Origin: a virus
Virus record (IMG/VR): IMGVR_UViG_3300043429_000130
Span: 1 to 64,000 of that record
DNA length: 64,000 nt
Reading direction: 5' to 3' (one strand)
Below the pieces are notes generated by a model, which was given only the letters and a program-made list of their open reading frames with translations, was not told the origin of the DNA and searched no databases. A program made the translations under genes and the position numbers. Positions 23,448 to 41,867 of the stretch are shown piece after piece (positions within the stretch are counted from its first letter, which is position 1; each line of letters begins with the position of its first letter).

Positions 23448-25814
23448 TTATTTTGTGTTTAGTATGGTTCCAAGAAGTCGTGGATCATTAGCAAATCCAA
23501 AAGCTGCAGCATATGCATCTAATGGAGATACGTATGTATTATTTACAGCATGACCGTTTACATGTAATAAGTATTTATAAACGCTTGGTGTATTAGTACC
23601 TATTTTCTCAATTTGATATGTTGGCATACCTGACTTACCCATAATATTAAAAAAAGTAGTAAATCTAGATTGACCCGGAGGAGTCATTAAATCATCAAGA
23701 CTAGTTACAATTTCTCTATGTAAAGGATCCATTCTTCTAAAAGGATCTAAATTAGCTGCAATAGTTGGACCGATTTTACCTACAGTAAATGTATTAGTCT
23801 TTTCATTATAAGTTACATCTTGTGTACCAAGAGTTGCTATTAGTTTATTTTTAACAACTTCTCTATCTACAGGTTTAGTAGAATTAAAATCATCAAGACT
23901 AAACTGTAGCTGCAAATCTTTAGCAGTAGGAAAAAACATAATACCAGCTACCTTACCTTCTAAACCTGTAATAGCTTCTAAGTATCCTTTAGTTCTTTTA
24001 TAATCAGGATCATTAACACTTAAAGCCATTCCACTTTTAGTTTGAGTTACTATAGTATTACGTTGATTATTAAACTCTCTTTTAAAACTATTAAATTGAT
24101 TATCTAAAGCCATTCCTTCTTTTAAACTTATACCAACTTTAACAGCAGCTGCTTGTTGTGGTAGTACTAATCTAAAATTGTTTGAAGTTCTAGTTGCATC
24201 TTGACGTGCTGGCTCTTGATAAAATCTACCTAAGTCACGAGTAACTTTTTGACCATCTGCATCAACTTTTGTTTCAAAATAGGTACCAGTTGTAGGATTA
24301 AAGTTTACAACTGGTTTAGCCATACTAGCCTGAACTTTATTTTTTTCTTGTAAGTATGTTTGATATACTTCCCATTGTGGGCCCATTTTTTCTATGGCAT
24401 ATCTTTCTGCATCAGCATTCCAGTGTTCTAACTTACCTTTAGCGTTTTCTACAGCTTGACTTGCTCTTGTAAACTCTATAAGTTCCTTGTTAGTCTGATT
24501 TCTGCTAATCCAGTTATCAAGTTCTTTTTGAGTTAATGAACCAGAAGATCTACCTTTAAAAGTAGGATCTGTTCTAACAATAATATCTTTAAGTTCAGAA
24601 AGTTTAGATCTTTGTAATCTTTCTGCATTAGATACTTCAGCATTTAAAGTAGTTAAGTTAGTTGTAACTTCTTCTCCAGGAGTTTGTACAGGCACAAATG
24701 GTAAGTCTTCCTTATCTTTTTTCCTGTTTTTTTCATTCTCTGCAGCATCAAAAGCCATACGAGCATACATCATAGCCACTTGGTTAAAACCAATAGTTTG
24801 TTCTATATCTCTATGTGAATAACCATTAGCTATACGACCAACTGTTTGACCAATGTATATATTCTCAGCAAGCTTCTGAGCATTCTTCTTTAAAAAATCT
24901 ACATCTCCTTGTTGAATACTCTGAATATTACCACGTATTTCTTTAGATCGTTCTGTATAAAAATCCCTCTCTTCTTTTAAAGCTTTAACTTTTTCTGGAT
25001 CTTTTTCTGCTTTTAAAGCTATATTAACATCTTCAAGTCTATTATCTATTAATGGTAAATCTTCAGCAGCTTGAGTCATGTATAAACCAGCAACAGAATT
25101 AAGATCTGGAAATCTAACAGCTGCTTCAATACGCATCTGCTGTTTAGCCTTATCAGAAAGTACAGAACTTAAGTATTTATTAATTTCTTCTTTTGTATAA
25201 GAAGCATCCTTAGTAGTAACCATGTACATACCATTGATCTTTTCAATCTTAGTAGAACTAGGTTTAAAGTCTTTCATGGCATCTTTGATCTCTTTATTCC
25301 AATCATGAAAAGGAGTAAAAGATCTTCTGTTACTATAGTAATCACCTACAGTAGATATATCATCTTTAGCAAAAGCTTCCCTTTGCATACGGACATACTT
25401 AATATTATCATCACTATATTCTTTACCACCGTCTTTTAATCTATAAGATTCAGCAATACTTTCTTGCTGATCCCAGTGAGATGTTAAAGCCATATCAGCA
25501 AGAACCCCACGGTTCTTTACAAAAGGTTCAAATACACCAGCAGCCATTTTAACATTCTGCTGTTGTGATAAGTCTAATGAAGATAAGTTTTTAAGATTAT
25601 CTTGTGCTTGTTTAAGAAACGTATCTCTCACTTGAGTACTGTAAGGGTTAGTTACATTTCTATTTACAAAGTTATAGGCACTATTAACTTGAGCAAAACC
25701 TTGCTCATATAGTCCCTGTCTCCTTCTTAGCATTGTATCTAGAAAGGAGAAGTCAGGTGTAAACAGAGCTGGCTCTGGAATTACATCAGTTATGTTAGGT
25801 AAGTAGGTTGCCAT
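23448..25814 (-). CDS. Putative virion ejection/cargo protein
   Basis: 788 aa, helical; position between muzzle and RNAP genes. Confidence 0.6.
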   Translation of the reverse strand: MATYLPNITDVIPEPALFTPDFSFLDTMLRRRQGLYEQGFAQVNSAYNFVNRNVTNPYSTQVRDTFLKQAQDNLKNLSSLDLSQQQNVKMAAGVFEPFVKNRGVLADMALTSHWDQQESIAESYRLKDGGKEYSDDNIKYVRMQREAFAKDDISTVGDYYSNRRSFTPFHDWNKEIKDAMKDFKPSSTKIEKINGMYMVTTKDASYTKEEINKYLSSVLSDKAKQQMRIEAAVRFPDLNSVAGLYMTQAAEDLPLIDNRLEDVNIALKAEKDPEKVKALKEERDFYTERSKEIRGNIQSIQQGDVDFLKKNAQKLAENIYIGQTVGRIANGYSHRDIEQTIGFNQVAMMYARMAFDAAENEKNRKKDKEDLPFVPVQTPGEEVTTNLTTLNAEVSNAERLQRSKLSELKDIIVRTDPTFKGRSSGSLTQKELDNWISRNQTNKELIEFTRASQAVENAKGKLEHWNADAERYAIEKMGPQWEVYQTYLQEKNKVQASMAKPVVNFNPTTGTYFETKVDADGQKVTRDLGRFYQEPARQDATRTSNNFRLVLPQQAAAVKVGISLKEGMALDNQFNSFKREFNNQRNTIVTQTKSGMALSVNDPDYKRTKGYLEAITGLEGKVAGIMFFPTAKDLQLQFSLDDFNSTKPVDREVVKNKLIATLGTQDVTYNEKTNTFTVGKIGPTIAANLDPFRRMDPLHREIVTSLDDLMTPPGQSRFTTFFNIMGKSGMPTYQIEKIGTNTPSVYKYLLHVNGHAVNNTYVSPLDAYAAAFGFANDPRLLGTILNTK

Positions 25815-25886: not shown

Positions 25887-28800
25887 TTAAGTGGTTTGTC
25901 CAAATGGATTAATCATTGCACCAAACAATGGATTATACATTGCTGGCATACTTTGAGCAGTAGTTCTAATACTGTTTGGAATACCATCTGCATTACTATC
26001 TGAATATGTACTTCTTGGAACTGTTCTGTTCATATACTGTTCAACTGTTAAATCTGGAAAAGATTTCTTAGCTGCATTATATCCTTTAGAAATACTAGCC
26101 CAATCTAAACCTCCAGCACCTGACCCACTAGACATCATTCCTAATCTACTAGGATCATATCCTTGTTTAAAGAAGGATAAACCAGATCTTGGATCTACAT
26201 TGTAGATAGGGTTAACTTTATTAAGCATATCTAAATACATTCTATTAGCAAATGCATTGTTAGCTGCTTTAGTAATACCAGTTAAATACTTTCTACGAGC
26301 ATTATCAAGATTTTGTTTAGTAGTAACAAAGCCTTCCCAACGTCTTTCTCTTGCGTTAGTATTGTAAGCATCATTAGCTGTCTTACGTTGTAACTCTTGA
26401 GCCATAAACTGATTAGCTCTATCTACATTACGAGAGTCTACTTGAGCAATATCTTGTGCTACACCCTCACCAGTTTGACCTGCTAAGAATGAAAGGTTAG
26501 AAGCCATAGCTGTTCCTGGTTGATATTGACCAAGAGTAGTAGCAGCAGTATTAAATGTCTGCTGTCTTTGCTGAGCTTTAGATAACCAATCTTCTAATAC
26601 TAAATCACCTTGTCTATAAGGAAGATCTGGAACAAAAGGAAGATAAGCTTGTGGAGGAACCAATCCTGCTGTTAACAATGCTAGTTTATCTGGTGTTAAG
26701 AAACCAGGTTTTTGTTCAGGAGGTATTTCACCAGTACGAATTTTACCTGGTATAATTTCACCAGGACATTGTAAAGAAGCAGCTTGTCTTGATCCTACAG
26801 CTCCATCAGCAGCCATAGCTTGAGCATCCATATAAGATGACTCAACAATAATAGGATTACCGTTTTCATCTCTACCAGTACACTTATAACCAACTGGAGA
26901 CTTTCCAGGAACCATTTTAGGTTTAGAACGATAACTATCATAGTGTTCAGCTGCAAGCATCATATCATCTCCTAACTGAGTTCTATAATCTGCACCTACA
27001 AATCTTTCAGCAAACTTTGGATAAAACTGTTTCTCAAAGAAGTTCTTATTAGTATATAAACTCTTAGTATTCTTTAATTGGTCATCACTTAAGTTAGATA
27101 CATCTACACCAAGTTCTTTAAAGTAAGCTTTACGAATATCAAGCTCACTCATATTCTTCATGGCATCTTCACCCAGAACATCTTCTACTACTCTACGTTC
27201 ATACATTTCAGGTTTATATCCACCAAAGAATCCAGCTTTTTTCTTTGAGTCACCAGTCCTTTTAAAAGTTAGTCCAGGAGTAGATGATTGAATAACTCTA
27301 AACCCAGTATTATTTCCTTCTGCACCTCTTTTAAATCCAAACTTACCAGCTAAACGAGCAAACTCTTTTGCATCTGCATCAGACATGTCTGCAACATTAT
27401 ATGCACCAGGTACTAACTTATTATTATATTTCTCAAGTAGTCCTTTATATTTTGCAAACTCAGGATCACTAAGAGCTGCTAGTTGTTTAGGTGATAACGT
27501 TTGATCTATAACTTCAGTATCCGGCATAACTGTAGGCTTAGAAGCAGCTTGACGTCTGTCTAACTCATCAAGAATAGCTTGTTGTTTTTGCTGTTCAATA
27601 AAAGCAACAACACTAGGATCTAAAACTTGACCTGCTACTTGATACTCAGGTAAATAACCACCATAAGCAGCTATAGCCATTTGATCTTCTGAACCTTCTG
27701 CAACAGCAGGAATACCTTGAGGGAATCCTTTCATCTCCTCTTGTATAGTAGCAAGAGCAGAAAGTTTTTTACGGTAGTTGGTTAACATTAACTGAGCAGT
27801 AGATTTAGAAATCTTATCAGCTTCTGGATCTTCTACAATAGCTTTATACTTATTAATATCATACTTCCTAGCAATCTCAGCAGGAGTATAACCGCCTTTC
27901 TTAAGAGGCATACTAAATAAAGTAAGAACAGAAGGATCTTTAATTTTCATCTTAGCCGTATCAGAAAAGATAAAACTTCCTTCTGGTACATTAAGAGGAG
28001 TACCACCTTGAGAGTGACGCTTACCGCCAATCTTCATATGCTCAAGTCCTCCATCACCATCTAAATCACCATATACAGTTTCACCTCTTTCTGCCTCTAT
28101 ATTAGCTGCGTAACGAGGTACTTCTCTAATAGTATTACTTACTGAGTCAGCTTTAGACTGAGGCATTTCAGTTTGTACTCTACGTTGACCAAGATCTAAA
28201 CCATATCCATTTTGACCACCGTATTCAAACTCTAAGTTTTCTGGTTTACCAGTTATTCTAATCTTTATCATGTTACTTGTATTAGCAAAGTTTTGTTCAC
28301 CACCCATTTCAAACATTCCCTCATTAGGCTTACGTGTTACATCCTCACGGAACCTACCTGTATTAATGTTATAGTTTCCTCTAAACTGAGGACTAACAGC
28401 TTGATTATCAAACTGGTTTTGTCTAAATGCTCTCTCGTAATCTTTAAGCTTTTTATTTTGACCAAAGTAATCTACTACAGCTCCAGCTGTTAATACAGCA
28501 TCAGATATATCAGAAACTTTATTAGCAAGTGATGAGTTAACCGCACCACATCTAATAGCTGCTTCTGCTTTTGTAGAGAAGGCACCTGCTGCTTTTCTAG
28601 CATCATCATTTGCGTAAGAAGACGCTTGAATATCAGCAGTTCCATCTGGTTTCAATCCTTTACATATATATCCTATTGGTGACTTCATACCGAATGTTTT
28701 ATTAGCAGCTTGTTGTTGAGGAGTAGCACCTAATGTAGGATACTGTTGTTGTAACTTAGCATCTGCAACAGCTTGAGTATCAGCTACATAATCTGTCCTA

Positions 28801-29798
28801 CCCATGTTTCCAAAATATGTTTTAACAGCTTGTGGGTTAAGTGAACTAGGCATATTAAAACTAGAAGCTAATGCACCACTTACTGAACCAGGTGAACTAG
28901 TTGTTGCTGTAGCAGAATTACTAGCAGGAACTGTAGATGCAGCTGATACTAATGCTGCACTTGGTGAAAAAGCAGAAGGCATACTACTACCATTTAACTG
29001 TAGTGGAGTAGGTGAGTTAGCTAAACTAACTGTAGCCGCAGGTTGTTGAGTAGGTGCTGCTGGTGTTTGAGCTGAAGGCTTAAAAGTTGTAGAAGCAAAC
29101 TGCTTAACATCAGATATAGCATTTCCAATAGCTGGTCCAACTTTAGGTATAAAGTTTTTAATATCAGTTATAGCATTGGTAACAACTGGTCTAACCTTTG
29201 GAACAAGATCTTTAACTTCATTTACAGCAGTATTTACTGCAGCATTTAAAGGTGAAGAACCAGGAGCTTTATAAGTTCCCCACATTGTTGTTCTTGGTTG
29301 CCAAGTATTAGCATAGGCAACATTAGGTTTCCCGTCTGTTTGTTTAGTTGTTCTATAAACATTTAATTTAGAGTTATCTAAATTATTAATAAAGTCAGGA
29401 TCAGAATACATTTTCTCAATATCTTTTCCATATTGATTCCACTCATTAGGAAATGAGTTAGGACTGTTTAACTGATCTAAACTAATTTTACCAGCGTTAT
29501 AAAGAAGTAAGTCATTAGGATTACGATCCGTATTAAACATATAATCAGCCATCCTTTCTCTCATACCCATTGGATACATAGATACTTTAGGAAGATACTG
29601 TTGTTTAAATAATGTAACAGCCTCATCTAAGTTTGCCGGACTTGCATTATTAAATCCAAATGCTGGATGACCAGTACCATCAGCTAATCCTTTCTTAGAT
29701 TCATACTTTAGTATTTTACGAATCCAAGAGTCATTTTCATCTACCTGACCTTTAGATTGATACTTAGTTAACGGTGCTTTAGTTATACGTATTTTCAT
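25887..29798 (-). CDS. Virion cargo protein with N-terminal lysozyme (GH108-like) module
   Basis: 1303 aa; KILKYES...AVTLFKQQY...MADYMFNT; EAERGE...GKRHSQGG..IFSD module; P/A/S-rich linker. Confidence 0.6.
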   Translation of the reverse strand: MKIRITKAPLTKYQSKGQVDENDSWIRKILKYESKKGLADGTGHPAFGFNNASPANLDEAVTLFKQQYLPKVSMYPMGMRERMADYMFNTDRNPNDLLLYNAGKISLDQLNSPNSFPNEWNQYGKDIEKMYSDPDFINNLDNSKLNVYRTTKQTDGKPNVAYANTWQPRTTMWGTYKAPGSSPLNAAVNTAVNEVKDLVPKVRPVVTNAITDIKNFIPKVGPAIGNAISDVKQFASTTFKPSAQTPAAPTQQPAATVSLANSPTPLQLNGSSMPSAFSPSAALVSAASTVPASNSATATTSSPGSVSGALASSFNMPSSLNPQAVKTYFGNMGRTDYVADTQAVADAKLQQQYPTLGATPQQQAANKTFGMKSPIGYICKGLKPDGTADIQASSYANDDARKAAGAFSTKAEAAIRCGAVNSSLANKVSDISDAVLTAGAVVDYFGQNKKLKDYERAFRQNQFDNQAVSPQFRGNYNINTGRFREDVTRKPNEGMFEMGGEQNFANTSNMIKIRITGKPENLEFEYGGQNGYGLDLGQRRVQTEMPQSKADSVSNTIREVPRYAANIEAERGETVYGDLDGDGGLEHMKIGGKRHSQGGTPLNVPEGSFIFSDTAKMKIKDPSVLTLFSMPLKKGGYTPAEIARKYDINKYKAIVEDPEADKISKSTAQLMLTNYRKKLSALATIQEEMKGFPQGIPAVAEGSEDQMAIAAYGGYLPEYQVAGQVLDPSVVAFIEQQKQQAILDELDRRQAASKPTVMPDTEVIDQTLSPKQLAALSDPEFAKYKGLLEKYNNKLVPGAYNVADMSDADAKEFARLAGKFGFKRGAEGNNTGFRVIQSSTPGLTFKRTGDSKKKAGFFGGYKPEMYERRVVEDVLGEDAMKNMSELDIRKAYFKELGVDVSNLSDDQLKNTKSLYTNKNFFEKQFYPKFAERFVGADYRTQLGDDMMLAAEHYDSYRSKPKMVPGKSPVGYKCTGRDENGNPIIVESSYMDAQAMAADGAVGSRQAASLQCPGEIIPGKIRTGEIPPEQKPGFLTPDKLALLTAGLVPPQAYLPFVPDLPYRQGDLVLEDWLSKAQQRQQTFNTAATTLGQYQPGTAMASNLSFLAGQTGEGVAQDIAQVDSRNVDRANQFMAQELQRKTANDAYNTNARERRWEGFVTTKQNLDNARRKYLTGITKAANNAFANRMYLDMLNKVNPIYNVDPRSGLSFFKQGYDPSRLGMMSSGSGAGGLDWASISKGYNAAKKSFPDLTVEQYMNRTVPRSTYSDSNADGIPNSIRTTAQSMPAMYNPLFGAMINPFGQTT

Positions 29799-29800
29799 GA

Positions 29801-31237
29801 TTACATTATTTCAAACTGATAACCTTGTTGACGAAGAGTTTCTAATTGTTCTGGAGATACATCTAAAACTTCACCTTCTACTGGGCCACCCATTTGCTTA
29901 GCAAAGTTCTTAGCAAAGTTAGCTTTTTTTCTCATAGCTGGACTATATCTTCCTTCTGGTGCACCAAGTATTGCAGAAGCTGCTTCTTGTACTCCCATGC
30001 CCATACGAGTAGCTTGAGCTTTAAACGTTCCTCTTTTAGAAGGATCTAAATGTATTCCACCTTGTCTCATCATTTCTACAGCATAGTCTGCTGGAAATGC
30101 CATATCATATTCAGGAATAAAAGCACCACCACCTTGATAGAATGCATTACCACTAAATGTAGAACCACCATCTTTCCATGTTGCTCTAGCAAATGCTCTA
30201 AAGTATGGATTACCATCTAAGTTCTTTTTATGACGAGCATAGAAAGCTGCTTTACGTTCTGGATCTTTAGGATGCTGACCTAGTTTAGAATCACCAAAGT
30301 ATTTAACAGTTCCATCAGGTCCTGTCACTTTATGTGTTTTACCTTTACGATCATTACTTCTAGTTACAGTGTAACCACCTCTACTCATTTCTGGCATTTC
30401 TTCTTGCTCATACTCTTCTTCCATTTCTTCTTCACCACCCTGAGCTTCAGGATTGTACATCATATAGTCAGCAATAGCATCTGCAGAGTGATCCATTACA
30501 GCAAGCTTAGAAGCAATCCAAGGATCTAAGTTTTGTTCTGGTGACACAAATTGACGTAGCTTAGACATTTTATCCGCAACTGCAGACATTTGTCCTAAAG
30601 CCATACCACCATTTGGTTCACCACCTTCAGCAAAAATACCTGTTGTATACCCACCATAAGCCATAGCTGCTTGTGTCATATCAGGTTGCTGAGAAGCTTG
30701 TTGTACAGACTGAGCCATTTGTTCAATAGCTTGTTGCTGCTGTTCTGCAGGCAACTCTTGTAACTGCTGCATTAACTGGTTAGGATCCATCTGATTCATT
30801 TCAGCAAACGCTTGTATAAGCTGCATAATCTGCTCTTGTTCTCCACCTTGTTGCATATATTGATTACCTCCATACATCATTTCTGGAATATATCCACCAT
30901 AAGCATAACCATAATCAGCCATTTGATCTAAGTTACCGGCAGCTGCAAAACGTGCACGTGCAATTTCAGATGGCATCTTTTCTCCACCTTGTGCCATGTT
31001 ATCCATAATCTTTTGTTGTACAGCAGGAGGTAAAGCATTAAAGCCTGGGTTGTCTGGTGTACCACCGTCACCCATTACTTCCATACCATACTCAGCTTTA
31101 CGCCACGTACCGCCTTTACCTTTATACCATTTAGCAGCCCAGCCATTAGCATATGCACTTGGGTATACATCAAATTTCTGTTTAGCCATAGACTTGGCTC
31201 TAGACCAAAGGGCTGGGTTGTTAGGTTTGTTTGCCAT
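29801..31237 (-). CDS. Modular virion protein of short domains separated by Phi-x-x-GG motifs
   Basis: 478 aa, M/Q/G-rich, about 12 Phi-x-x-GG motifs; IHLDPSKRGTF...KKANFAKN module. Confidence 0.65.
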   Translation of the reverse strand: MANKPNNPALWSRAKSMAKQKFDVYPSAYANGWAAKWYKGKGGTWRKAEYGMEVMGDGGTPDNPGFNALPPAVQQKIMDNMAQGGEKMPSEIARARFAAAGNLDQMADYGYAYGGYIPEMMYGGNQYMQQGGEQEQIMQLIQAFAEMNQMDPNQLMQQLQELPAEQQQQAIEQMAQSVQQASQQPDMTQAAMAYGGYTTGIFAEGGEPNGGMALGQMSAVADKMSKLRQFVSPEQNLDPWIASKLAVMDHSADAIADYMMYNPEAQGGEEEMEEEYEQEEMPEMSRGGYTVTRSNDRKGKTHKVTGPDGTVKYFGDSKLGQHPKDPERKAAFYARHKKNLDGNPYFRAFARATWKDGGSTFSGNAFYQGGGAFIPEYDMAFPADYAVEMMRQGGIHLDPSKRGTFKAQATRMGMGVQEAASAILGAPEGRYSPAMRKKANFAKNFAKQMGGPVEGEVLDVSPEQLETLRQQGYQFEIM

Positions 31238-31245
31238 AACTTAAG

Positions 31246-34200
31246 TTATTTATTTCTTTTATGATTATAATTTATACGTTGACTACTAGTCTTACTAGCT
31301 TTAAACTTAGCTTTTTCTGCAGAGCTCATTTCTGAAGCAGTCTTAGGTGTCTCACTAGATACTCTTTTAGAAGGACGGCATGCGGGATAACCTTTACGAG
31401 ACTCTCCTTCTTGTCTACCACAATCTTTACCTGTCTTTACATCTACCCACTTCTCAGCAAACCATCTATCTAGTCCACCATGTTGTCCACCATTTTTCAT
31501 CTTAACCATACCTCCACACTTGTGACAAGTTAATGGATCAGATCCACCTTCTACTGCTTTCCATGACCATCCACAATTAGAACAGCTAACAGACTTACTA
31601 AGAAGACCACCACCGTTTCTCATCATTGGATTATCATCTGCACTTGTGATATTCCAGTTTTTATCAAAAAACAGAATACTTCCACTTCTTGTCTTTACTT
31701 TTCTAGCACCAAGTTTTTTAGCTTGTTTAGCCATAGCAGCATGATCTGGAATCCATATACCTTCTTCATTAAAGTTTCCAGCATCTTCAATTACAGGAAC
31801 AGACCCACCACTTTGCATCATAGGATACTCGTCTACATAAGATGCACCGCCAAAGTTATACTCTTGTTCTGGATACATCATCTGTTCCTGACCATTAGAT
31901 CCTATACCTAACACAGGATAAGGAACACCTTGCATAGTTATATTAGCACTAGGTATACGAGTTACTTTACCAGGGTGAGCCCACTGACCACGAGGATCTA
32001 ATATAGGACCACCTTGTTTTTTAATATACATATTGCCTGCTCCATAACCATCTGGTAATTTATTATTAAGAGAAAGGTTTAAAAGATACTTAGTCTTTTG
32101 TTCAGGACTTATAAAAGGTGTAGATCCTACAGCTGCACCTACCATGTTATTAAAAGCATCTTCTGCAGATTCTCTTAGTTTAACTCCCCAAGGTCTAGTA
32201 TCACTACCTTTCATTAATGTAGAAAGTTCATGGCCTGCTCCTAATGCATTTGCACCTAAGAATCCTGCAACTTGTGATAATATAGGTATATTTCCAAGTT
32301 TATCTTGTATTGCTTCTGACGTATATCTACCAGCCATTGGATGTCTAAAGTTATCTAAAGGATCATCCTTTGGACCAAAGTATTCTTTAGATGCACTTAT
32401 ACCATCTTTAACTGCTTTAGCCATAGGTCTACCAAGCCAACGATCTAAAGACTTTTCATAATCACGTAATGTATTACTAATACTATTTACTGATGTGTTA
32501 GGTTTCTTACCTGCTACTTTACCAGCCAGTTGCATTTTTGGTAGATTAAACACCCCACCATTAGCAAACTCTTCTTTAGGCATAGGAGCTCTATATGTAC
32601 TATCCATATACCTCATGAACTCTGGGTTACGCTTAAGCACATTATCTCTAATGTCAATAACCTGTTTACCATAAAGAGGATTCTTTCTTAGATCAATACC
32701 TCCTTTAGGAACCTCTACTCCATATATCTTCTTCATCTTGAAGCCATGATAATCTGCCTCTGTAGAAGGAAATACTTTACCTAAACCATTATATACCTGT
32801 AGACGTGTAGCTTCATCTTTAATCTTTAGTCTATCCGCATCTTTCATTTTAGAGTTGTAAGCACTAATGAAACTTTGGTAAGCATCTTCTTCTGGATTAT
32901 CACTATGTACACCTTTTGTATGCCCTATATTATAATCTGTTTTTCCCCACTTAGTTTCTTGAAAACCCATAGCTGCAAGATTCATCATATCATTATAAGA
33001 CATGTTTTTTCTTTTAGCTTCTGTCAATAACTTACCTAAATCTTCAGAATCATAATCACCACTAACTAAATCTGAGTTAGGTCTAAGCGGTTTACCAGTA
33101 GTCATCATGACTTTTCTAGGGTCACGTATGCTTAATCTTTTAGGAGCTGAGGCAGGTGTTCTAACAATCTTAGGTTCATTAAAACCAAAAAACTCTTTAG
33201 CTTTTGCAGCCATAGTTGCCATAGCAGCTATAGTAGTAGGGTTTACAAAAGTTCCCCACTGAGCTTGAGGTAGATCATACTCACCACCTTCTTCTTTATA
33301 TACATTAAACAAGAAGTTTCTCATGCCATTCCATCCACCCATCTTAGGAGCTAGCTCAGACTGCATTCGTTGTAAATCATAATATCTAGGATCTACACCA
33401 AGTTTTTCTTGAGCAAGTTTAGAACCCATAGGGGTACTTAATCTCTGCTTTAATTTACTAGCAATAATATACTTTTGTTCAGGACTATATCCAGACGTAT
33501 CATCTGCTACAAATACATTAGGGTTCTGTTGAAAAAACTGTTTAGACGCTGCCATAGCTGCTTTCTTATCAGCTTTATCTAAAGGACTCTGCATCCAGTC
33601 ATAGTCAAAAGTTAACTGACCTGCAGCTTGTGCGGCATATTGTTTAGCATTTTCTTTATCCATAGCAGCCACCTGCTTAGCCCATGCATTCATATCTGCA
33701 TTAGCAGCTTTATTAGCAGCCGCAGCTTCTCTACCTCTAACTACCTCAGCTTTACATTTACCTGTTACAGGATCTTTTTCTTGATCAGGACAATCATAGA
33801 ATCCACCTACGTCATACTTGTTAACACTACCTCCACACTCATAGCATGGTTCACCACCATATCTTTTTTCTTTTTGACCGGCTATATTCATACCAGCATT
33901 GTATGCAGCATTACTTAGAATAAAAGGTATACGTGGATTTTCACTATATCTATTACGTCCAAAAAAAGCTTTAGCTCTTTGCCCAGCATAGTCACCAATA
34001 ATTTGAGGAACTCTAGATAAAGGATTACCTTTTACCATATAAATACTAGGTTGTTCATAAAGCCCACTAATAAATCTTCCAACATTTTCATCTGCTATTC
34101 TAGTCATTGGAAAATTTAAACCTGTTTTTTTATTAACTTCCAGTATAGGATTATCTAATGTAGGTTTATAATTATCTAAAAACTGTCTTAAAGAACCTTT

Positions 34201-35328
34201 GATAGTATTATCATTTTGAGCAGCATATGGTAAATCAAGTATAAGTTGTTGAGTTATACCATCTTTTTCTAATTGAGCAGCTCTTTGTAAAGATTCAGGA
34301 TTTCCTGTTTGTTTTAAAAGGCTAATACGATTTTGTAATTCTTGAGTATACTTAGGTGCATTAGGTAAAATACTTTCTATGTTTTCTGGCAAAGCATTAC
34401 TAATTCTTTTTCCTTTATTACCTGCCCAGTTTAACGGTTGAGTTTTTCCTGGATTAACTGCAGTAAATCCTTTACTTCTAGCAGCTTGTGTCCAAAATAA
34501 TGGAGCTGAATTTTTACTCATACTTCCATCAAAAGTAAATGCTCCTTTAGGTAGTGCAGCCATTTCTTGAGACATCATTTTAGCCACATCATCAGCAGGT
34601 ATATTAAAATATGAGTGACCAGTTACATCACCTTTTAAATAACCTAAATCAATAGCTCCAGCATTAAGTGCATTTTTTACTCTACCTACCTTACTAGTCA
34701 TTCCTGCTGTACCCTTATAAGCTGTAGTAGCTCCTCTTAATCCTCTAGAAAGTAGGTTAGTTCCTTGAACAGCTTCTGCTGCAAAAGGCATTGCTCCTAA
34801 AGCATGCATTCCTGTATTTAAAAAATCCATTCCACTTAAACTAAGTGGATCAGTAACTCCTCTATATATTATATCACCAGCACCTTTACCAAACTCTTTT
34901 GCTTCATTCACATAGAAAAAAGGATTAACCATATTAGCAGCTATATCTAAAGAGTTCTTTTTTCCTAACTCAAAATTATCTGGTATATCTCTACCTTGAG
35001 CTTTATAAGCTAAAGCTGTCATTGGGTTAGTAGCAATAGCCCAAGCTTTAGAAGCCATAGATTTTGGAGCAGGAGCTTGTCTAATATATCCCTGTCTATC
35101 TCTAGCAGCTTGATCAGCAGCACGTTTAGCTAAAACTTGTTTAGCTGCAGCGTCCTTTACCATTTGTGATCTAACAACAGCAGGATTAGGTATGTTATCA
35201 TACACAGGTTTTTCACTAACTGGAGGTTTAAACATCACTACACCAGCTTTTTGCATCTTCTGCAGGCCAGGAAGAATTTTATGTTCTACATTAGGCTGGC
35301 TCATTAAATATTGAAGTAACTTATTCAT
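31246..35328 (-). CDS. Modular virion protein (transglycosylase-like, SAA-like, Zn-ribbon and basic modules)
   Basis: 1360 aa; FQETKWG..YNGLG; DNFRH..HE..DAFNN; CSNC..CHKC; GLDRWFAEKWVD. Confidence 0.6.
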   Translation of the reverse strand: MNKLLQYLMSQPNVEHKILPGLQKMQKAGVVMFKPPVSEKPVYDNIPNPAVVRSQMVKDAAAKQVLAKRAADQAARDRQGYIRQAPAPKSMASKAWAIATNPMTALAYKAQGRDIPDNFELGKKNSLDIAANMVNPFFYVNEAKEFGKGAGDIIYRGVTDPLSLSGMDFLNTGMHALGAMPFAAEAVQGTNLLSRGLRGATTAYKGTAGMTSKVGRVKNALNAGAIDLGYLKGDVTGHSYFNIPADDVAKMMSQEMAALPKGAFTFDGSMSKNSAPLFWTQAARSKGFTAVNPGKTQPLNWAGNKGKRISNALPENIESILPNAPKYTQELQNRISLLKQTGNPESLQRAAQLEKDGITQQLILDLPYAAQNDNTIKGSLRQFLDNYKPTLDNPILEVNKKTGLNFPMTRIADENVGRFISGLYEQPSIYMVKGNPLSRVPQIIGDYAGQRAKAFFGRNRYSENPRIPFILSNAAYNAGMNIAGQKEKRYGGEPCYECGGSVNKYDVGGFYDCPDQEKDPVTGKCKAEVVRGREAAAANKAANADMNAWAKQVAAMDKENAKQYAAQAAGQLTFDYDWMQSPLDKADKKAAMAASKQFFQQNPNVFVADDTSGYSPEQKYIIASKLKQRLSTPMGSKLAQEKLGVDPRYYDLQRMQSELAPKMGGWNGMRNFLFNVYKEEGGEYDLPQAQWGTFVNPTTIAAMATMAAKAKEFFGFNEPKIVRTPASAPKRLSIRDPRKVMMTTGKPLRPNSDLVSGDYDSEDLGKLLTEAKRKNMSYNDMMNLAAMGFQETKWGKTDYNIGHTKGVHSDNPEEDAYQSFISAYNSKMKDADRLKIKDEATRLQVYNGLGKVFPSTEADYHGFKMKKIYGVEVPKGGIDLRKNPLYGKQVIDIRDNVLKRNPEFMRYMDSTYRAPMPKEEFANGGVFNLPKMQLAGKVAGKKPNTSVNSISNTLRDYEKSLDRWLGRPMAKAVKDGISASKEYFGPKDDPLDNFRHPMAGRYTSEAIQDKLGNIPILSQVAGFLGANALGAGHELSTLMKGSDTRPWGVKLRESAEDAFNNMVGAAVGSTPFISPEQKTKYLLNLSLNNKLPDGYGAGNMYIKKQGGPILDPRGQWAHPGKVTRIPSANITMQGVPYPVLGIGSNGQEQMMYPEQEYNFGGASYVDEYPMMQSGGSVPVIEDAGNFNEEGIWIPDHAAMAKQAKKLGARKVKTRSGSILFFDKNWNITSADDNPMMRNGGGLLSKSVSCSNCGWSWKAVEGGSDPLTCHKCGGMVKMKNGGQHGGLDRWFAEKWVDVKTGKDCGRQEGESRKGYPACRPSKRVSSETPKTASEMSSAEKAKFKASKTSSQRINYNHKRNK

Positions 35329-38300
35329 TATCTATGGGACTGTGTTAACTTTTGGTTAGATATTTTAAATAGCATCTTTAGATCTCCACTCTTTGTTTTT
35401 CTTAACCATACTTTGTTTACATTGTGTCTAAACCTCTTACGTTCTAAAGCTGCCTTGGTATAATCAATATACTGAGAATTAATATCATACTGATATCCGT
35501 TAGCCTTAGTATTAAACATAGGTACATTAACAGTACTAAATTCTCCACGATTTTTAGTAATATCCCAGAACTGATTAAATCTATACTTGTTCTCTTCTTT
35601 AGAGAATAAAATTTTTATAGAATTAGTTTGTATCTGAGGATAAGATAAAGCTGCTACAGGATTGTTCTTAGGCTTTAAGTTTAACTCTAGTAATCCAGAT
35701 ATCTGCTCTGAGTTAGAAATAACAGCTTGATCAAAGTTTTCATCTAATACATGAAACTTATCAGCACAATTATTGTGTGTCTTGTATACCTCTAGCAAGT
35801 ATTCAATATTTCTTACAGAGTTAACCTGTTGGCCAGTAGCAGAAATAAACTCCACCTCAAAAGGATAATCTTTACCATAGAAGTTTGCATAAGAGTCACA
35901 ACGTACATTATGCTTCCATATAGAATTTGTATCCACACTCATGAAGTGAGCTTTACCTGGAATGGTAAACGTAGGCTTCCAATCATGGAATGATAACCAT
36001 GTTTGACTCTTAGGATCATAGCTAATAGTCCATGATGCATCTTCAAATGCTAAGGTATTAGTAAGATCATAATATGTCTTAATACCTGAAACTGTTCTAT
36101 AAAATCTACCATCAGCGTCATAAGCCATATCATTAAACAAAGGCTTATAGTCTTTCTTAGTGATATAGATTATCTCATTAGTATTATCATAGGTCATTTG
36201 TACACCTACACCTTTTACAGGGTTATCGTACAAAGGATAGTTAGGATACTTAGCTAGTAGTTCAGAAGGTAGGTATTTAGCAAACCACCATTTCATACCT
36301 TCTCTAGAAATCTCTTTAAGCTGCCCAGCATACTGAAACACCTTACCTTGGTTCTGAGAAACCCAGAATACACCATGAGTACATCCTAGGTTAGCAAACT
36401 TATTCTGACAAGAACCATACTCAAATGATTCATCAGCATTTACTAAAGCTTGAAGTTGTTGAGGACCGCTAAATAATGCTCCATCACCAATAGTAATCTT
36501 AGCACCAGTACCATCTAACTTAAGTTCCTCAACACCCATGAACTGCATAGGACTTTGATAAGCCATCATAAATAACGCACCAGTCTTATTAATAGACTTG
36601 ATTGCTGTTACACGACTACCAAATGTCTTATAGTTGTTAGCTAAGTAAACTCTCCAGTTATCTTTCTTACTCTCATCTTGTTGTGGAAGAGAATAAACAA
36701 CTCTATTAGGATAGTAACTATAACAAGATTCTACTTTCTTAGGATCAAAATCTCTGTCAAGCATGTTGCCCCAAGTGATCTGAGAGTTAAATAACTTAGA
36801 TACACTTAGTGAGTAATCATATTTATAGTAGTTAGGTTCTTTAATAATGTCTGATCTAAACATATTACTTAGATCAGTTAGTCCGTTATAATCATAATGA
36901 CGTTTATCAATACGATCTTCCCAATCTCTGTATGCTACGTTAACCTCAGATTCTACAAAGAAGTCACGTACACCAGAGTTAAATAAATAAAAGTACCCTC
37001 TACTAATATGAAATGCACTAGATACTCTATGATCTAATGATCTAAATTGACTAGCTAGCTTAAATAAACCACCAGATAAATTAGTATTGTTTACCCAAAA
37101 TCTTGGATAAGGCATACTAAAATACATAGTGTAATCTAATTCAGCACCGTTAGGTTCACCATATAACCATGTGTTAAAGAACAACATGCTATTCTTTTCA
37201 GTGAATCTATTTATGTAAACATCACCATTAAAGTAAACATTAGATGTAAACTTACTAGCAGTAGATGTAGATATATCTTCTATACATAAAGAAATAGGTA
37301 GCTGCTTTAAACTATCCAATTGACCATATTGAGATGGTAAAGGAATTTTTAAAGCACCATAGTGTCCAGATATTGGAGTTTGATAAGTAGAGTATAGGTT
37401 AGCATTCTTTTCACTAATTAAATATCTACTTGTATCTTGGACAGTTGGATCACTTATATCAGCATGAGTTTTGATTACTACAAACTTACCACGATTAAAG
37501 TTATTAATCATGTAGTTCTGAGTATCTGCAAAGAATGACTGAACATCAGATCCAACATAACTAGATTCTATTAACTTTCTTCTTCTGTTTCCTTCTGGTG
37601 TAACTTTAGATTTATTATAATAACCATGAGAAACATACTGAGCAGCATATTGTCTATATGGAATAACAGCTAATACTAACTTCATTAGTTGTTCAGAAGT
37701 AACATCTGTCATGATAACAGACATAGCTCCTAATACAAGAATATTAGCTGCTGTAATAGCTGAGTTACCTACAGTTCTTTTTCCTGCTGCTCCAATAGGT
37801 CCTACTTCAGGAACACCTGTTGTGCTAAAATAACCATTGGTTACACCAACAAATGTACCCATAAGTGCTTCAGCTCTATGCGGAGCTAATAAACTTTGAG
37901 TAACGTTTACATCACCATCTGCTTGAAGATTTAATGTAGCATCAGCACCTGCAACTGCTCCAATTACTTTTGAAATCTGAGATACAGCTGCTAATACGTT
38001 TGTTATTAGATCTGTAAAGTTTGTAGGAAGTTTAAACTTAGGATGCTTATATGGAGTTTCAAACCTACCATTAGCTTCACCATAAAGCTCTTGGTATATT
38101 TTTAATTCATTACTATTTAAAAAAGGAGTACTAAATGTTACATCTGGTCCATGAAAAGATAATACATCTTTCTTATATTTTGATAGTTTAGATGATGTAG
38201 GATTAGGTCCACCATTATCACCACGTTGTTCATCAGGAGTTAAATAACTATCTTGTCTTAAGTCATTAAATGGATAGTTCTGGTATAGACCAGTTACGTT

Positions 38301-39947
38301 AGTCTGATTAGGAACAGAGTATTCTCTCATGTTATTAATCAAACCTTTACTTATAATAGTTTTATGTCCTTCTCTTGATGCACGTAATACTTCATATCCT
38401 ACAATAGATGTAATAACGTTTCCGTTAATATCTACAGGTTTTGTAATGTTCTGAAACTCAACACCTAGTATAATAATTTTATTACCATCATTTGTAAAGT
38501 GGTTAACAACATCACCACCAGGAATTGTAACATCAGGAAACTTATGGTGTCTAATAGGTTGACCACAAAGGCTTCCCCATATGTCTACTCTATTAGAAGG
38601 ATATAATTCTGTAGATTCCCAGTAACCCATTTTACCTTTACCTACAACACGTCCACCATCTGCTAAAACAGAAGGAACAACTGACTCTACAGTAGCCGTA
38701 TTACTTGTTTGCCATTTCTCTACTTGAATACCTTCTATAGTTTCAAATGCATCTGTACCATTAGCTAAAGCTGTGTCTGTAGATAAAGGTGCTCTACCTG
38801 GAATATGATATGATTCAGAACGTTCTCCTGTATTATATACCCATCTAATAAAAAATGCATATTGCTCATCTCTCATGTATCCAGTGTTATTACCACCTTT
38901 TACATAATAGTTACTAGGATATTCTACAGCAACCCATCTAGCTTCAATATTATTAGCTTGTAGTTGGTAGTTAAACTTAGTCTTACTGTATGTACCTACA
39001 CGTAACATGTAATTGTTTACTGTATAGATAGCATCAGATTTTTCAATAGGTTCAGTTCTTACAACAATCTGAGAAATAGGTACAGTCTCAAAATCATTAC
39101 TAAGAGCATCTAAGTAAATAGTTCCTTGGTTAGTAGAATAGTAGCCCACTCTACGTGCAATTGTTTGACCATTAATCTGAGCTAGTATAACTAATTCAAA
39201 TTCTTCAAAGTCCTCGTCAACTGCTGTAATTTTTACTTCTAAAGAAGAACTAACGTTTTGATGAGTAAATAATGACTGTACCTCAGATAGTCCAAGATAG
39301 TCTGTCACTTTAACTTTATTGATTGTATATGCAATAGCTACTTGATACGATCCATTAGGAAGAGTACCACTAGCTTTACCTTTTTCTAGAACAATGCAAG
39401 GATGCTTAATAAGAGATGTTAAACGGATCTCTTCACAGTCAAGGTCTGTTGTATAAACTCTAGTTACACAACCATTAGATATATTCTCAGTGTATTTAAA
39501 TGGAGGATTATCTAAATCCATAAATCTGTCTGGGTTCAATCCATCAGACCAATAAACTGGACGTTCACAGTCATAGCGTCTACGGCTAGTTCCTGTAATT
39601 ATATTAGAACGCTTAAAGTTTAAACACTTAGCGTTTACTTTCTTTGTATAAGAACATGCTGACTCATCAAAGACACCAATCTCAGAATCTACATCATTTG
39701 TTGTAAAGATAGCCCAAGTATCATCAGTAAGATGAATACAGCCAATCATGGTATAAGGAAGAGTTACACAATGTAAGTTAGATGGTTCATTACCTATAAC
39801 ACCAATCTGACCATCATGTGAGTTGTTTACAGCATTACGGGCATGTGTCCACAATCCCTCTCCAACGAAGGTCTCATTGTAATCCTTAACCATCCCCTTA
39901 TTAAAAAGGTTAGTGGTAGATGTAGGGTTCTGTGTATTTTCAGCCAT
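35328..39947 (-). CDS. Tail stabilisation / muzzle protein
   Basis: 1539 aa beta-rich; FNKGMVKD..NAVN..GNEPSN N-terminus and WTISYDP..WLSFHDWKP C-terminal motif; position between ring and cargo genes. Confidence 0.75.
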   Translation of the reverse strand: MAENTQNPTSTTNLFNKGMVKDYNETFVGEGLWTHARNAVNNSHDGQIGVIGNEPSNLHCVTLPYTMIGCIHLTDDTWAIFTTNDVDSEIGVFDESACSYTKKVNAKCLNFKRSNIITGTSRRRYDCERPVYWSDGLNPDRFMDLDNPPFKYTENISNGCVTRVYTTDLDCEEIRLTSLIKHPCIVLEKGKASGTLPNGSYQVAIAYTINKVKVTDYLGLSEVQSLFTHQNVSSSLEVKITAVDEDFEEFELVILAQINGQTIARRVGYYSTNQGTIYLDALSNDFETVPISQIVVRTEPIEKSDAIYTVNNYMLRVGTYSKTKFNYQLQANNIEARWVAVEYPSNYYVKGGNNTGYMRDEQYAFFIRWVYNTGERSESYHIPGRAPLSTDTALANGTDAFETIEGIQVEKWQTSNTATVESVVPSVLADGGRVVGKGKMGYWESTELYPSNRVDIWGSLCGQPIRHHKFPDVTIPGGDVVNHFTNDGNKIIILGVEFQNITKPVDINGNVITSIVGYEVLRASREGHKTIISKGLINNMREYSVPNQTNVTGLYQNYPFNDLRQDSYLTPDEQRGDNGGPNPTSSKLSKYKKDVLSFHGPDVTFSTPFLNSNELKIYQELYGEANGRFETPYKHPKFKLPTNFTDLITNVLAAVSQISKVIGAVAGADATLNLQADGDVNVTQSLLAPHRAEALMGTFVGVTNGYFSTTGVPEVGPIGAAGKRTVGNSAITAANILVLGAMSVIMTDVTSEQLMKLVLAVIPYRQYAAQYVSHGYYNKSKVTPEGNRRRKLIESSYVGSDVQSFFADTQNYMINNFNRGKFVVIKTHADISDPTVQDTSRYLISEKNANLYSTYQTPISGHYGALKIPLPSQYGQLDSLKQLPISLCIEDISTSTASKFTSNVYFNGDVYINRFTEKNSMLFFNTWLYGEPNGAELDYTMYFSMPYPRFWVNNTNLSGGLFKLASQFRSLDHRVSSAFHISRGYFYLFNSGVRDFFVESEVNVAYRDWEDRIDKRHYDYNGLTDLSNMFRSDIIKEPNYYKYDYSLSVSKLFNSQITWGNMLDRDFDPKKVESCYSYYPNRVVYSLPQQDESKKDNWRVYLANNYKTFGSRVTAIKSINKTGALFMMAYQSPMQFMGVEELKLDGTGAKITIGDGALFSGPQQLQALVNADESFEYGSCQNKFANLGCTHGVFWVSQNQGKVFQYAGQLKEISREGMKWWFAKYLPSELLAKYPNYPLYDNPVKGVGVQMTYDNTNEIIYITKKDYKPLFNDMAYDADGRFYRTVSGIKTYYDLTNTLAFEDASWTISYDPKSQTWLSFHDWKPTFTIPGKAHFMSVDTNSIWKHNVRCDSYANFYGKDYPFEVEFISATGQQVNSVRNIEYLLEVYKTHNNCADKFHVLDENFDQAVISNSEQISGLLELNLKPKNNPVAALSYPQIQTNSIKILFSKEENKYRFNQFWDITKNRGEFSTVNVPMFNTKANGYQYDINSQYIDYTKAALERKRFRHNVNKVWLRKTKSGDLKMLFKISNQKLTQSHR

Positions 39948-40299
39948 GTTTTATTACTAACTTCTTCTTGTCCAAAAATTTATATATCTCTCCAGAAAGA
40001 TGACCAACTAACCAAGCTTGTGCCTCTTCATCTGTTATATCTCTATCTTCTGTTATTCTTACTACAGCATGATAAAGTTCATGGGCAATTGTATTATGAG
40101 TTAAGAACTGATCTCCTAGCAAAAGATAATAGCTATCTATATCTGGCATTACTAGTGCACCTTCAGCCTCTCCTCCAAACTCTTCTTTTATCTTATATCT
40201 TTTATAAAGTTTCTCTGCAGCTACAGATACACTTTCTACCACTACTACTATGAGTTTACAACTATACGTTGGTAATTTTATAGTAGTACTTATCTTCAT
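39940..40299 (-). CDS. Small zincin-like metallopeptidase
   Basis: TIAHELYHAV...DEEAQAW (HExxH plus downstream E). Confidence 0.7.
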   Translation of the reverse strand: MKISTTIKLPTYSCKLIVVVVESVSVAAEKLYKRYKIKEEFGGEAEGALVMPDIDSYYLLLGDQFLTHNTIAHELYHAVVRITEDRDITDEEAQAWLVGHLSGEIYKFLDKKKLVIKHG

Positions 40300-41196: not shown

Positions 41197-41867
41197 CGTA
41201 ATACATTCTGTTTATCTTGAGAACTATCTGATGGAATCTGCATCATTCCCATAAGATCTTTAAATACGTTACTTTCTATCTCACCAAACAGATAATCTGG
41301 TACATTGAAAGGCTGATCTGTTTTTTGGATACAGCTATCAGCAGCACAAGTAAAAGCTGAAATATCTTCTTCAAAGATTCCTTCTATACGTACAGCATCC
41401 CAATCTAAATCAGGAAAGTATAGATAGTCATTTAGATACCAGAAGTATTTAGATTTGTTATACTTAAAGTTTTTAGATTTAGATAAAGCTAAATATGTAC
41501 CAGGATTAGTTGGTTGAAGTTCTTCTGAACCATCAATAGATGTTGTAGAACGAATAAGTGGGCCATAATAGCCTTGCATAAAAACAGGCATTTTATCTTT
41601 AGTACGTTTAATAGTACAATCAGATTTTAATCCTGTGCAACATGCTTCCACTTTATCTACCTCAACAAGCTCAACAAAGTCTAGGGTTTGTACTACACCA
41701 GAGAAAGAAAGAAGCTGATTTTTACCGTCTTCACGTTTCATCAACCACTTAGCATGCTTTAGGATGAATGCATAAATAGCTCTATCAGTCAAGAAAGCAT
41801 CTTGTCTGACAGCCTTTATCTGTGTACGCATTCTAGAGATTACATCTCCTATAGTAGTTTTAGCCAT
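41193..41867 (-). CDS. Putative tail ring/tubular protein
   Basis: 224 aa; KYFWYLNDYLY..VRIEGIFEE; synteny. Confidence 0.55.
   Translation of the reverse strand: MAKTTIGDVISRMRTQIKAVRQDAFLTDRAIYAFILKHAKWLMKREDGKNQLLSFSGVVQTLDFVELVEVDKVEACCTGLKSDCTIKRTKDKMPVFMQGYYGPLIRSTTSIDGSEELQPTNPGTYLALSKSKNFKYNKSKYFWYLNDYLYFPDLDWDAVRIEGIFEEDISAFTCAADSCIQKTDQPFNVPDYLFGEIESNVFKDLMGMMQIPSDSSQDKQNVLR

Follow-up and report, generated by a model that had tools for sequence, protein, structure and literature searches.

The window analysed here, a stretch of 64,000 nucleotides (positions 1 to 64,000 of the IMG/VR virus record IMGVR_UViG_3300043429_000130), is the start of one 119,642-bp contig that, judged by its sequence, is the genome of an uncultured crassvirus (crAss-like phage). 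Three adjacent open reading frames (ORFs) of 1360, 478 and 1303 amino acids (aa), on the minus strand at 31246..35328, 29801..31237 and 25887..29798, respectively, are punctuated by a recurring peptide, Met/aromatic-x-x-Gly-Gly (Phi-x-x-Gly-Gly), called the joint below. A preliminary description of this DNA had listed the copies of the peptide and taken the three genes for cassettes of small effectors, either released by cleavage at the two glycines or carrying a repeated, uncut tag. All the listed copies are present, in ORFs that lie where they had been placed, and the three genes are indeed chains of small swappable modules closed by Met/aromatic-x-x-Gly-Gly; the pattern is real.

The 478-aa ORF is the most densely punctuated. 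It carries 12 sites (in 11 places) of the strict motif [MFYW]xxGG, namely MGDGG (residue 55), MAQGG (81), YAYGG (111), MMYGG (120), MQQGG (128), MAYGG (192), FAEGG (202), MSRGG (284), WKDGG (354), YQGGG (367) and MRQGG (390), plus KQMGG (447). The 1360-aa ORF has seven strict sites in addition to variants in K; the copies listed earlier are KRYGG (488), YDVGG (505), KEEGG (678), FANGG (921), KKQGG (1103), MQSGG (1171), MRNGG (1236) and MKNGG (1277), and the further variants MQKAG (25) and MQLAG (932). The 1303-aa ORF contains FEMGG (496), FEYGG (524) and AAYGG (709), with YQSKG (13) and YQVAG (719) as variants. When each of the 33 window ORFs was compared with 1000 composition-keeping shuffles of itself, the 478-aa ORF showed 12 sites against 1.03 expected and the 1360-aa ORF 7 against 1.51, and in neither case did a single shuffle come as high. 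The 1303-aa ORF, which had been described as sharing the pattern, does contain it (3 sites against 0.97 expected), but is only marginally enriched, its p being 0.065. The 30 other window ORFs hold nothing comparable, the one that stands out being a 410-aa ORF with two overlapping sites against 0.12 expected. Over the whole genome (118 ORFs of at least 60 aa), there are 22 sites in the 3,141 residues of the three ORFs and 20 in the 34,326 residues elsewhere (odds ratio 12.1, Fisher p 1.9e-13).

The choice of residue three places before the glycine pair is narrow. M, F, Y or W stands there at 22 of 41 Gly-Gly sites in the three ORFs (background 0.13), as against 20 of 185 elsewhere in the genome. 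Among 198 non-redundant Gly-Gly contexts, taken from 120 homologues of the 478-aa ORF, the same four residues account for 142 (M 61, Y 48, F 24, W 9; background 0.16), and Leu, Ile and Val are depleted (9 of 198, background 0.11, p 0.0015). The two middle places of the joint are variable, and so is the residue after the glycines, where Pro occurs at background frequency (12 of the 198 contexts). Two extended forms of the joint were noticed. The first, GG-[YF]-h-P-E-[MY], follows several joints (YGGYIPEMMYGG, GGAFIPEYDMAF, YGGYLPEYQVAG, FGGYKPEMYERR), with copies at about 30866-30907, 30100-30139, 27630-27662 and 27200-27222 on the minus strand; the second, the variant L-P-K-[MA]-Q-x-x-G, is found at chain starts and once within the 1360-aa ORF.

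The modular construction is seen in the 478-aa ORF, whose relatives, of 267-830 residues, number more than 3,179; out of 7,999 scored candidates, the best 120 were taken as the homologues studied. When these were cut after each motif and the pieces clustered, the pieces fell into families of near-fixed length (70 aa in 110 proteins, 25-34 aa in 115, 69-88 aa in all 120), and what distinguishes one homologue from another is which whole pieces it has, in what order, and which have been replaced. At least eight distinct module families are represented in the 478-aa ORF alone. The first module (residues 1-59; 31061..31237, minus strand, as are all the modules described here), closed by MGDGG, matches the first half of DUF5872, with a Pfam E of 0.004 that does not reach the cut-off. 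The three tandem joints YAYGG, MMYGG and MQQGG, spaced 8-9 residues apart (30842..30907), are followed by a Gln-rich helical module (133-196; 30650..30841; predicted local distance difference test score, pLDDT, 76-81) closed by MAYGG. Next come a module found in 120 of 120 homologues (207-288; 30374..30619), closed by MSRGG, and a basic module (289-358; 30164..30373), closed by WKDGG and modelled as three strands plus helices (pLDDT 66-77), which is exactly 70 aa long in 110 homologues. The IHLDPSKRGTF... module (395-451; 29885..30055), closed by KQMGG, is common to the gp45-type cargo proteins of gut crassviruses, and a C-terminal 27-aa 'end' module (...VLDVSPEQLETLRQQGYQFEIM; 29804..29884) also ends chains in relatives. 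The earlier placing of motifs at the borders of modules was borne out for the basic and IHLDP modules and for the CxxC...CxxC module of the 1360-aa ORF (residues 1241-1281). Overall, AlphaFold models the 478-aa ORF poorly (mean pLDDT 51.6), with confident islands at 135-180, 290-355 and 400-478; every strict site, the tandem joints included, falls in a stretch of pLDDT below 50 between such islands.

Modules come and go at the joints, as the preliminary description had proposed. In global alignments of the homologues, 51 of 105 distinct boundaries of large indels (gaps of at least 20 residues) lie no more than 5 residues from a joint, where chance would give 25.6% (p 4e-7). The well-populated indels are whole modules: a 74-residue loss in 20 homologues, which removes the entire Gln-rich module with both ends 3 residues from a joint, insertions of 32-267 residues right after YQGGG, and insertions of 117 residues at WKDGG. 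These gap boundaries replaced a cruder proxy, the ends of BLAST segments, and two considerations weigh against taking the figures at face value: with that proxy only 25 of 76 distinct breakpoints were as close to a joint, against the same 25.6%, which is not significant (p 0.09), and the counts are not independent events, because the compared sequences are kin. Pooling every motif-bearing ORF from 20 related viral contigs showed modules of one phage's first ORF in another's second ORF, and modules of the 1360-aa ORF likewise recur in other ORFs of relatives.

The closing residue is a fixed property of each module family (M in 120 of 120, M in 115 of 115, W in 110 of 110, Y in 80 of 80, M in 79 of 79, M in 78 of 79 and M in 41 of 41), whereas the residue of the joint that precedes a module shifts with the neighbour (M 45, F 72 and Y 2 in one example), and the last modules of chains have no closing motif. 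Therefore, the cassette consists of a module and its own closing peptide. Free-standing copies of two modules, the halves of DUF5872, occur in cyanophages without the closing peptide. Exchange of modules at the joints is also what one would expect if the motif were a DNA-level recombination point or a by-product of composition. Both seem very improbable to us: in the 478- and 1360-aa ORFs the composition-keeping shuffles never reach the observed counts, the glycine codons of the motif (GGT in 30 of 43) differ little from those of the other glycines of the same ORFs (GGT in 140 of 238), and there is little fixed DNA sequence at the joints, because the x positions vary freely. The genes can thus be described as cassettes of small motif-bounded modules, which relatives gain, lose and move at the motif.

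In the 1360-aa ORF, the N-terminal 29 residues (35242..35328), which end in MQKAG, form a joint-type peptide at the start of the chain, relatives having ...LPGLQKMQKGG. The CxxC...CxxC module mentioned above (31486..31608) is a zinc-ribbon-like piece of 41 aa between MRNGG and MKNGG; it belongs to a cluster (L) of 8 members of 40-45 aa, and its match to Pfam DZR (E 0.018) does not reach the cut-off. The C-terminal module (31249..31485) is the second half of DUF5872 (Pfam E 5e-13, profile positions 49-110). A transglycosylase-like guess for part of this ORF was dropped, as was a lysozyme-like guess for the start of the 1303-aa ORF; neither found support in Pfam even at E<=1. The last ~700 residues of the 1303-aa ORF are a single conserved block with few joints. 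Its N-terminal start element, MKIRITKAPLTKYQSKG (29748..29798), has M1, I3, R4, I5, K12 and Q14 invariant in 21 of 21 relatives, and the sequence beyond it varies.

DUF5872 is split here and in reversed order: its second half stands at the end of the 1360-aa ORF and its first half at the start of the 478-aa ORF, the latter ORF starting 8 nt after the end of the former. At locus L030, both halves lie in one ORF and are joined by KEEGG, 21 residues and MASGG. The second half occurs free-standing, without the motif, as an 87-aa ORF in Prochlorococcus phage P-SCSP2, and the first half, detected by tblastn in two Synechococcus phages, ends a 202-aa protein from which the joint is absent. Because its halves occur apart in cyanophages, DUF5872 as defined in Pfam looks like a pair of modules. 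The 1303-aa ORF is the converse case. Many relatives have two separate ORFs in its place, in comparison with which it is a fusion, and the fusion point keeps the start peptide of the second ORF as an internal second copy of the start element, IKIRITGKPENLEFEYGG (28215..28271), at the position of the stop and new start of relatives. On these comparisons of sequence, joint and ORF boundary are interchangeable among relatives, and since ORF boundaries replace joints, the module chains on the two sides of a joint can work separately.

Chain starts and chain ends have features of their own. Cargo ORFs of this clade open with a handful of conserved leaders that finish in the motif or a variant of it (MNKLLQ...LPGLQKMQKGG, MKIRITGKxLPKAQ..., MKxYKVRIKxxPxxMAYGG, MKKWLDxYxxGG, MYYQQGG), and in 15 of the 120 homologues of the 478-aa ORF the motif stands at residues 3-7 with no module before it. 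In a survey of 202 ORFs at loci L009-L050, the ~25-aa 'end' module (...GGxVxE-h-T-x-EE...GG-x-h-E-F-h) had behind it, in all 36 distinct cases, an ORF that starts with K-[IV]-R-[IV], the full start signature being M-K-x-(Y)-K-[IV]-R-[IV]...P...Phi-x-x-GG. Conversely, of 38 distinct ORFs with such a start, 36 follow an 'end' module by pattern and the other two by eye. A complex prediction for such end-to-start coupling, with residues 395-478 of the 478-aa ORF and residues 1-45 of the 1303-aa ORF, scored 0.22 and 0.20, short of the mark of 0.32, which is uninformative either way.

The neighbourhood indicates what kind of proteins these are. All the virion-type genes of this block are on the minus strand, in the order ring 2, ring 1, a 119-aa ORF, a muzzle-like 1539-aa ORF and then the ORFs of 1360, 478, 1303, 788, 4259 and 1647 aa, and related viral contigs keep the same order. 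Tail ring proteins 1 and 2 (40303..41867) are recognised by Pfam (CrAss_Ring_1, E 6e-13; CrAss_Ring_2, E 7e-21). The 1539-aa ORF (35328..39947), with one motif, matches PHROG 'virion structural protein' families (E 1e-62 and 2e-45); it is termed muzzle-like on account of its place after the ring genes. The 788-aa ORF (23448..25814), in the position of cargo protein 2, has no motif, and its similarity to gp46 of phage crAss001 is not significant. The 4259-aa ORF (10653..23432) has DFDID at residue 3349, a virion RNA polymerase motif; the preprint of Drobysheva et al. presents DFDxD as the hallmark of the crAss-like virion RNA polymerase. The 1647-aa ORF (5704..10647) follows it, and neither of these two large ORFs contains an HExxH sequence, in contrast to crAss001 gp47 and phi14:2 gp076. 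The muzzle gene of crAss001 is followed by genes for the cargo proteins gp45 and gp46 and for polymerase-associated proteins (Bayfield et al. 2023, PMC10172136). Here the three ORFs have the ring and muzzle genes on one side and the polymerase-type giant ORF on the other, all on the same strand; because this gene order matches that of crAss001, they are in the cargo position, and their products are probably carried in the particle and injected.

The closest known counterpart is crAss001 gp45 (C1; Pfam PF25725, crAss_CARG1; PMC10172136), whose gene also follows directly after the muzzle gene. The 478-aa ORF has the IKIxPSKRGTF...NFA module of the gp45 homologue of Dulem virus 41: its residues 393-436 are 79.5% identical over 44 aa (E 5e-12) to the Dulem virus 41 protein encoded after the 'stabilization' (muzzle) gene, which in turn matches crAss001 gp45 at E 3e-63. 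Moreover, A[FY]GG or Phi-x-x-GG peptides border the two ordered segments of gp45, within a chain that, like those predicted here, is extended and largely unmodelled. With the bounds given in PMC10172136, FSAYGG lies 4 residues ahead of the start of the tail-barrel segment (214-245), which stops short of NAFAEGG, and the portal segment (425-552) opens with AFGG and stops short of MFAYGG. The likeness to gp45-type proteins is confined to that one module of the 478-aa ORF and does not extend to the 1303-aa ORF. None of the three ORFs matched crAss_CARG1 (cut-off 27 bits), either whole at E<=0.01 or, for the 1360- and 1303-aa ORFs, as nine sub-stretches at E<=1; gp45 itself, the Dulem protein and phi14:2 gp081, used as positive controls, scored 222, 129 and 41 bits. 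The 1303-aa ORF was tried as a homologue of gp45, of the Dulem virus 41 protein and of phi14:2 gp081, and the idea was given up: BLASTP was not significant and profile comparisons gave probabilities of about 1% (hhalign, 0.8% and 1.1%). A by-eye resemblance to gp45-type proteins around GGKRHSQGGTPLNVPEGSFIFSD is not claimed either. In addition, gp45 is one ORF of 842 aa, as against three ORFs (3,141 aa) here, and the motif is sparse in it (3 sites against 1.4 expected, p 0.16) and far denser in the window ORFs.

The cargo region has no nucleotide match in GenBank phages, and protein matches there are to single modules only (3 records for the 478-aa ORF, 2 for the 1360-aa ORF, 0 for the 1303-aa ORF); the 1303- and 1360-aa ORFs gave 0 matches to PDB sequences at E<=1. 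Phage phi14:2 has three ORFs after the muzzle gene that are annotated as found by tandem mass spectrometry (MS/MS), no homology of these to the window ORFs being found. A search of full-text literature, which covered papers outside subscription-only access, returned no description of the joint motif, and neither did passages of crassvirus papers, PMC10172136 among them, and of the polyvalent-protein paper. Polyvalent proteins (Iyer, Burroughs, Anand, de Souza and Aravind 2017, PMC5512222) are alike in uniting many unrelated domains in one chain that presumably enters the host with the DNA; they are described as holding 2-15 distinct domains per polypeptide, a range that the 478-aa ORF reaches. 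The modules here are different in being mostly tiny (25-90 aa) and without assigned function. None of the hallmark enzymes of polyvalent proteins (zincin-like MPTase, ART, kinases, helicases, ParB-like nucleases) was found by Pfam in the three ORFs, though remote versions could escape. The main text of PMC5512222 uses none of the words 'linker', 'glycine' and 'crAss' (0 occurrences), so that the joint motif lies outside that description.

We give about an even chance to the reading that the three ORFs encode ejected crassvirus cargo like gp45, built as module chains whose Met/aromatic-x-x-Gly-Gly joints stay uncut. Each product would be a chain of small, independently folding modules, and the unit of evolution would be the cassette, a module together with its closing Met/Tyr/Phe/Trp-x-x-Gly-Gly peptide. 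The bulky residue would be part of the end of the module that the joint closes, and the two glycines would stop the module and act as a flexible swivel, one that keeps neighbouring modules independent and lets the chain lie extended in the capsid, the channel of the portal and the tail, from which it would be threaded out and refolded piece by piece. Because each cassette carries its own joint, it could be inserted, lost, reordered or moved to a neighbouring gene without harm, and a stop codon with a new start could substitute for a joint. Several observations favour joints that stay uncut, among them that Pro is not avoided after the glycines, that the motif is kept at residues 3-7 in the 15 homologues that have no module before it, and that the ordered segments of gp45 are bounded by joints. 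The uncut tag or handle proposed as an alternative in the preliminary description is in this respect the version preferred here, although no binding partner of the joint was found.

Several points weigh against this reading. The claim that the joint is uncut is drawn from indirect arguments. A cassette that ends in Gly-Gly is also what a polyprotein cut after Gly-Gly would resemble, and the short N-terminal leaders terminating in the motif (such as MKxYKVRIKxxPxxMAYGG and MKKWLDxYxxGG) look like removable propeptides. In the model, the bulky residue falls in the last predicted helix turn, with the glycines right beyond, at only 4 of 11 strict sites (81, 192, 354 and 390), with low confidence. 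Nor is a passive hinge sufficient, because a plain helix stop should accept Leu, Ile and Val, which are depleted; some specific contact is therefore likely, and the Met/aromatic restriction suggests that something makes contact with the joint.

If the joints were protease sites, the three ORFs would be polyproteins packed whole and cut at or near Phi-x-x-GG, in the particle or after injection, with release of small effectors and removal of the short N-terminal leaders. We consider this, the main rival, possible but less likely. It would account for cassettes that end in Gly-Gly, for the unclosed last modules of chains, for the leaders of 7-29 residues ending in the motif with which several ORFs begin, and for the position of the joints in predicted disordered linkers; covalent continuity across a joint is evidently dispensable, since relatives have a stop and a start there. 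On the other hand, cut ends have been observed nowhere, tandem joints 8-9 residues apart would yield tiny peptides, and a motif at residues 3-7 leaves nothing to release. Products with a terminal Gly-Gly and, a few places upstream, a hydrophobic residue arise through the adenovirus protease, by African swine fever virus (ASFV) pS273R, from C39-type double-glycine leaders and from ubiquitin-like precursors; in the adenovirus-type rule the hydrophobic residue is one place nearer (xGG) and typically Leu, Ile or Met. Here the spacing is Phi-x-x-GG, Leu, Ile and Val are depleted, and no cysteine protease of those clans was found. The internal proteins of T4 and the inner-body proteins of phiKZ are head cargo whose targeting peptides are cut by the prohead protease at sites ending in Glu. 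Short conserved N-terminal leaders before a conserved site occur here too, but a recognisable prohead protease was not found in this genome. Indeed, neither prohead, C39 or adenain-like enzymes nor any other protease family was recognised in it (Pfam, 72 ORFs; PHROGs, 57 of these), many ORFs being without any match, so that a new kind of protease could have been missed.

The state of gp45 bears on the same question. In PMC10172136 it is modelled as one intact chain that runs from the tail to the capsid, with 179 connecting residues spanning about 420 Å, and the main text contains zero mention of cleavage, proteolysis or a protease. The model thus requires an intact gp45. Nevertheless, the gp45 peptides that the paper names (79-101, 181-190, 275-300 and 307-320) cannot exclude cutting, because none of them crosses a joint. 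Taken together, the lack of a protease family, the different spacing and residue choice, the background frequency of Pro after the glycines and the intact model of gp45 leave the proposed release by cleavage at Gly-Gly unsupported.

A candidate enzyme is the 119-aa ORF (39940..40299, minus strand), which lies between the ring protein 1 gene and the muzzle gene and carries the only HExxH of the genome; the three cargo ORFs contain none. It has 244 relatives of the same length, and all 37 sequences that were aligned keep H73, E74, H77, E91 and E92 unchanged; a profile search extended the family to 668 representative clusters, with HExxH in 147 of the best 150 representatives. The predicted structure is confident (pLDDT 93.6) and reads strand-strand-helix-strand-strand-helix-helix. 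HExxH is placed on the second helix (68-84) of this model, with the invariant Glu downstream as candidates for a third ligand, as in zincins. On these features of sequence and model, the ORF looks like a small zincin-like protein and a candidate enzyme. Matches to known families are few. The ORF had none in Pfam even at E<=10, and distant members gave sub-threshold Pfam matches in 5 of 30 (SprT-like in 3, DUF5700 in 2). Foldseek with the model returned nothing at E<=0.001, and the best Z in VIA was 5.4, to unrelated ribosome-silencing-factor-like chains, YbeY (1oz9, Z 4.4) being the sole zincin listed. An Atlas lead pointed to a cluster with Peptidase_M78 in 19% of its members (score 0.89). 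There was no tblastn match in GenBank phages and none to crAss001 gp39, and comparison with the HExxH regions of phi14:2 gp081 gave a probability of 2%.

Some observations fit a role of this protein in cutting the joints, and others do not. The order ring 2, ring 1, HExxH ORF, muzzle and motif-bearing ORFs is kept in 16 related loci, and its place next to the muzzle gene fits a cargo protease. Related observations come from other phages. The protein phi14:2 gp081 (Cellulophaga phage; L056, 20360-22141, minus strand), whose gene comes after that of the muzzle, has both a crAss_CARG1 domain and two HExxH sequences and is found in virions by mass spectrometry according to its GenBank note; the preprint of Drobysheva et al. 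suggests that fused polymerase polyproteins of crAss-like phages are cleaved and that a neighbouring virion protein has a zincin-like domain; and autoproteolytic release by embedded zincin-like peptidases has been proposed for polyvalent proteins (PMC5512222). Against such a role, the 119-aa protein gave no convincing zincin match by fold, it also has homologues at 7 loci of another phage type, one with neither a muzzle gene nor Gly-Gly-rich proteins, and no fused form links it to cargo, the two longer proteins seen being probably unrelated fusions.

A third possibility is that the motif is a docking tag, its copies binding a repeated site in the particle (portal, ring or capsid lining) or each other, so that the cargo would be brought into the procapsid and kept in the cargo zone. 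The Met/aromatic restriction and the invariant glycines resemble a short linear binding motif, the motif occurs in tandem clusters and at chain starts, and the portal-bound segment of gp45 opens with AFGG. We nevertheless regard this explanation as unlikely. No partner was identified, no ORF of 25-59 aa in the genome bears the motif, and each closing residue goes with its own module, as would suit a part of that module more than a generic tag. The portal itself (genome positions 75736-78489, minus strand) ends in ...NKNKYDVGGSAGKKKK, its NKNKYD part being conserved in relatives. The YDVGG at its C-terminus (...NKYDVGGSAGKKKK) was considered as a joint and is taken as chance, being not conserved: Gly-Gly occurs in 7 of 44 distinct tails, drawn from 66 complete portal ORFs of relatives.

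More speculatively, Phi-x-x-Gly-Gly may be a crassvirus code for cargo maturation, in which the family of ~120-residue HExxH proteins cuts the joints in the particle or on injection to give some twenty small effectors; or, independently of this, successive chains may be coupled end to start, the 'end' module with K-[IV]-R-[IV], and leave in gene order. We rate this proposal as a long shot. If there were such a code, the three genes would amount to an effector cocktail whose set each phage could alter by swapping cassettes.

Crassviruses are among the most abundant phages, and their way of loading and injecting several megadaltons of protein is an open question (PMC10172136). The joint rule marks independent units in thousands of otherwise unannotatable proteins, predicts the bounds of ordered segments, as in gp45, and pinpoints about 25 sites in this phage. 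With cut joints, the cargo genes would encode a changeable set of small injected proteins; with uncut ones, they would provide an example of how a phage builds a long chain fit for threading through a narrow channel.

Other features of the genome are as follows. The portal and the large terminase were recognised through PHROGs, and a Crass_capsid protein (the crassvirus major capsid protein; Pfam) is encoded further along the genome. Three very large tail-fibre-like ORFs of 1520, 1603 and 1644 aa stand in a row (51330-55892, 55873-60684 and 60694-64000, minus strand, the last running to genome position 65628), each with a Peptidase_S74 intramolecular chaperone domain at its end. Within the tail and structural block there are also a homing-endonuclease-like ORF (PHROG 314; 49334-50002, minus strand) and a DNA-repair-exonuclease-like ORF (PHROG 704; 42524-43840, minus strand). 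At the start of the contig, on the opposite strand, lie the genes for the small and large subunits of ribonucleotide reductase (1540-4147, plus strand) and an ORF with a cREC_REC (cyclic-phosphate processing receiver) domain (5044-5484, plus strand).

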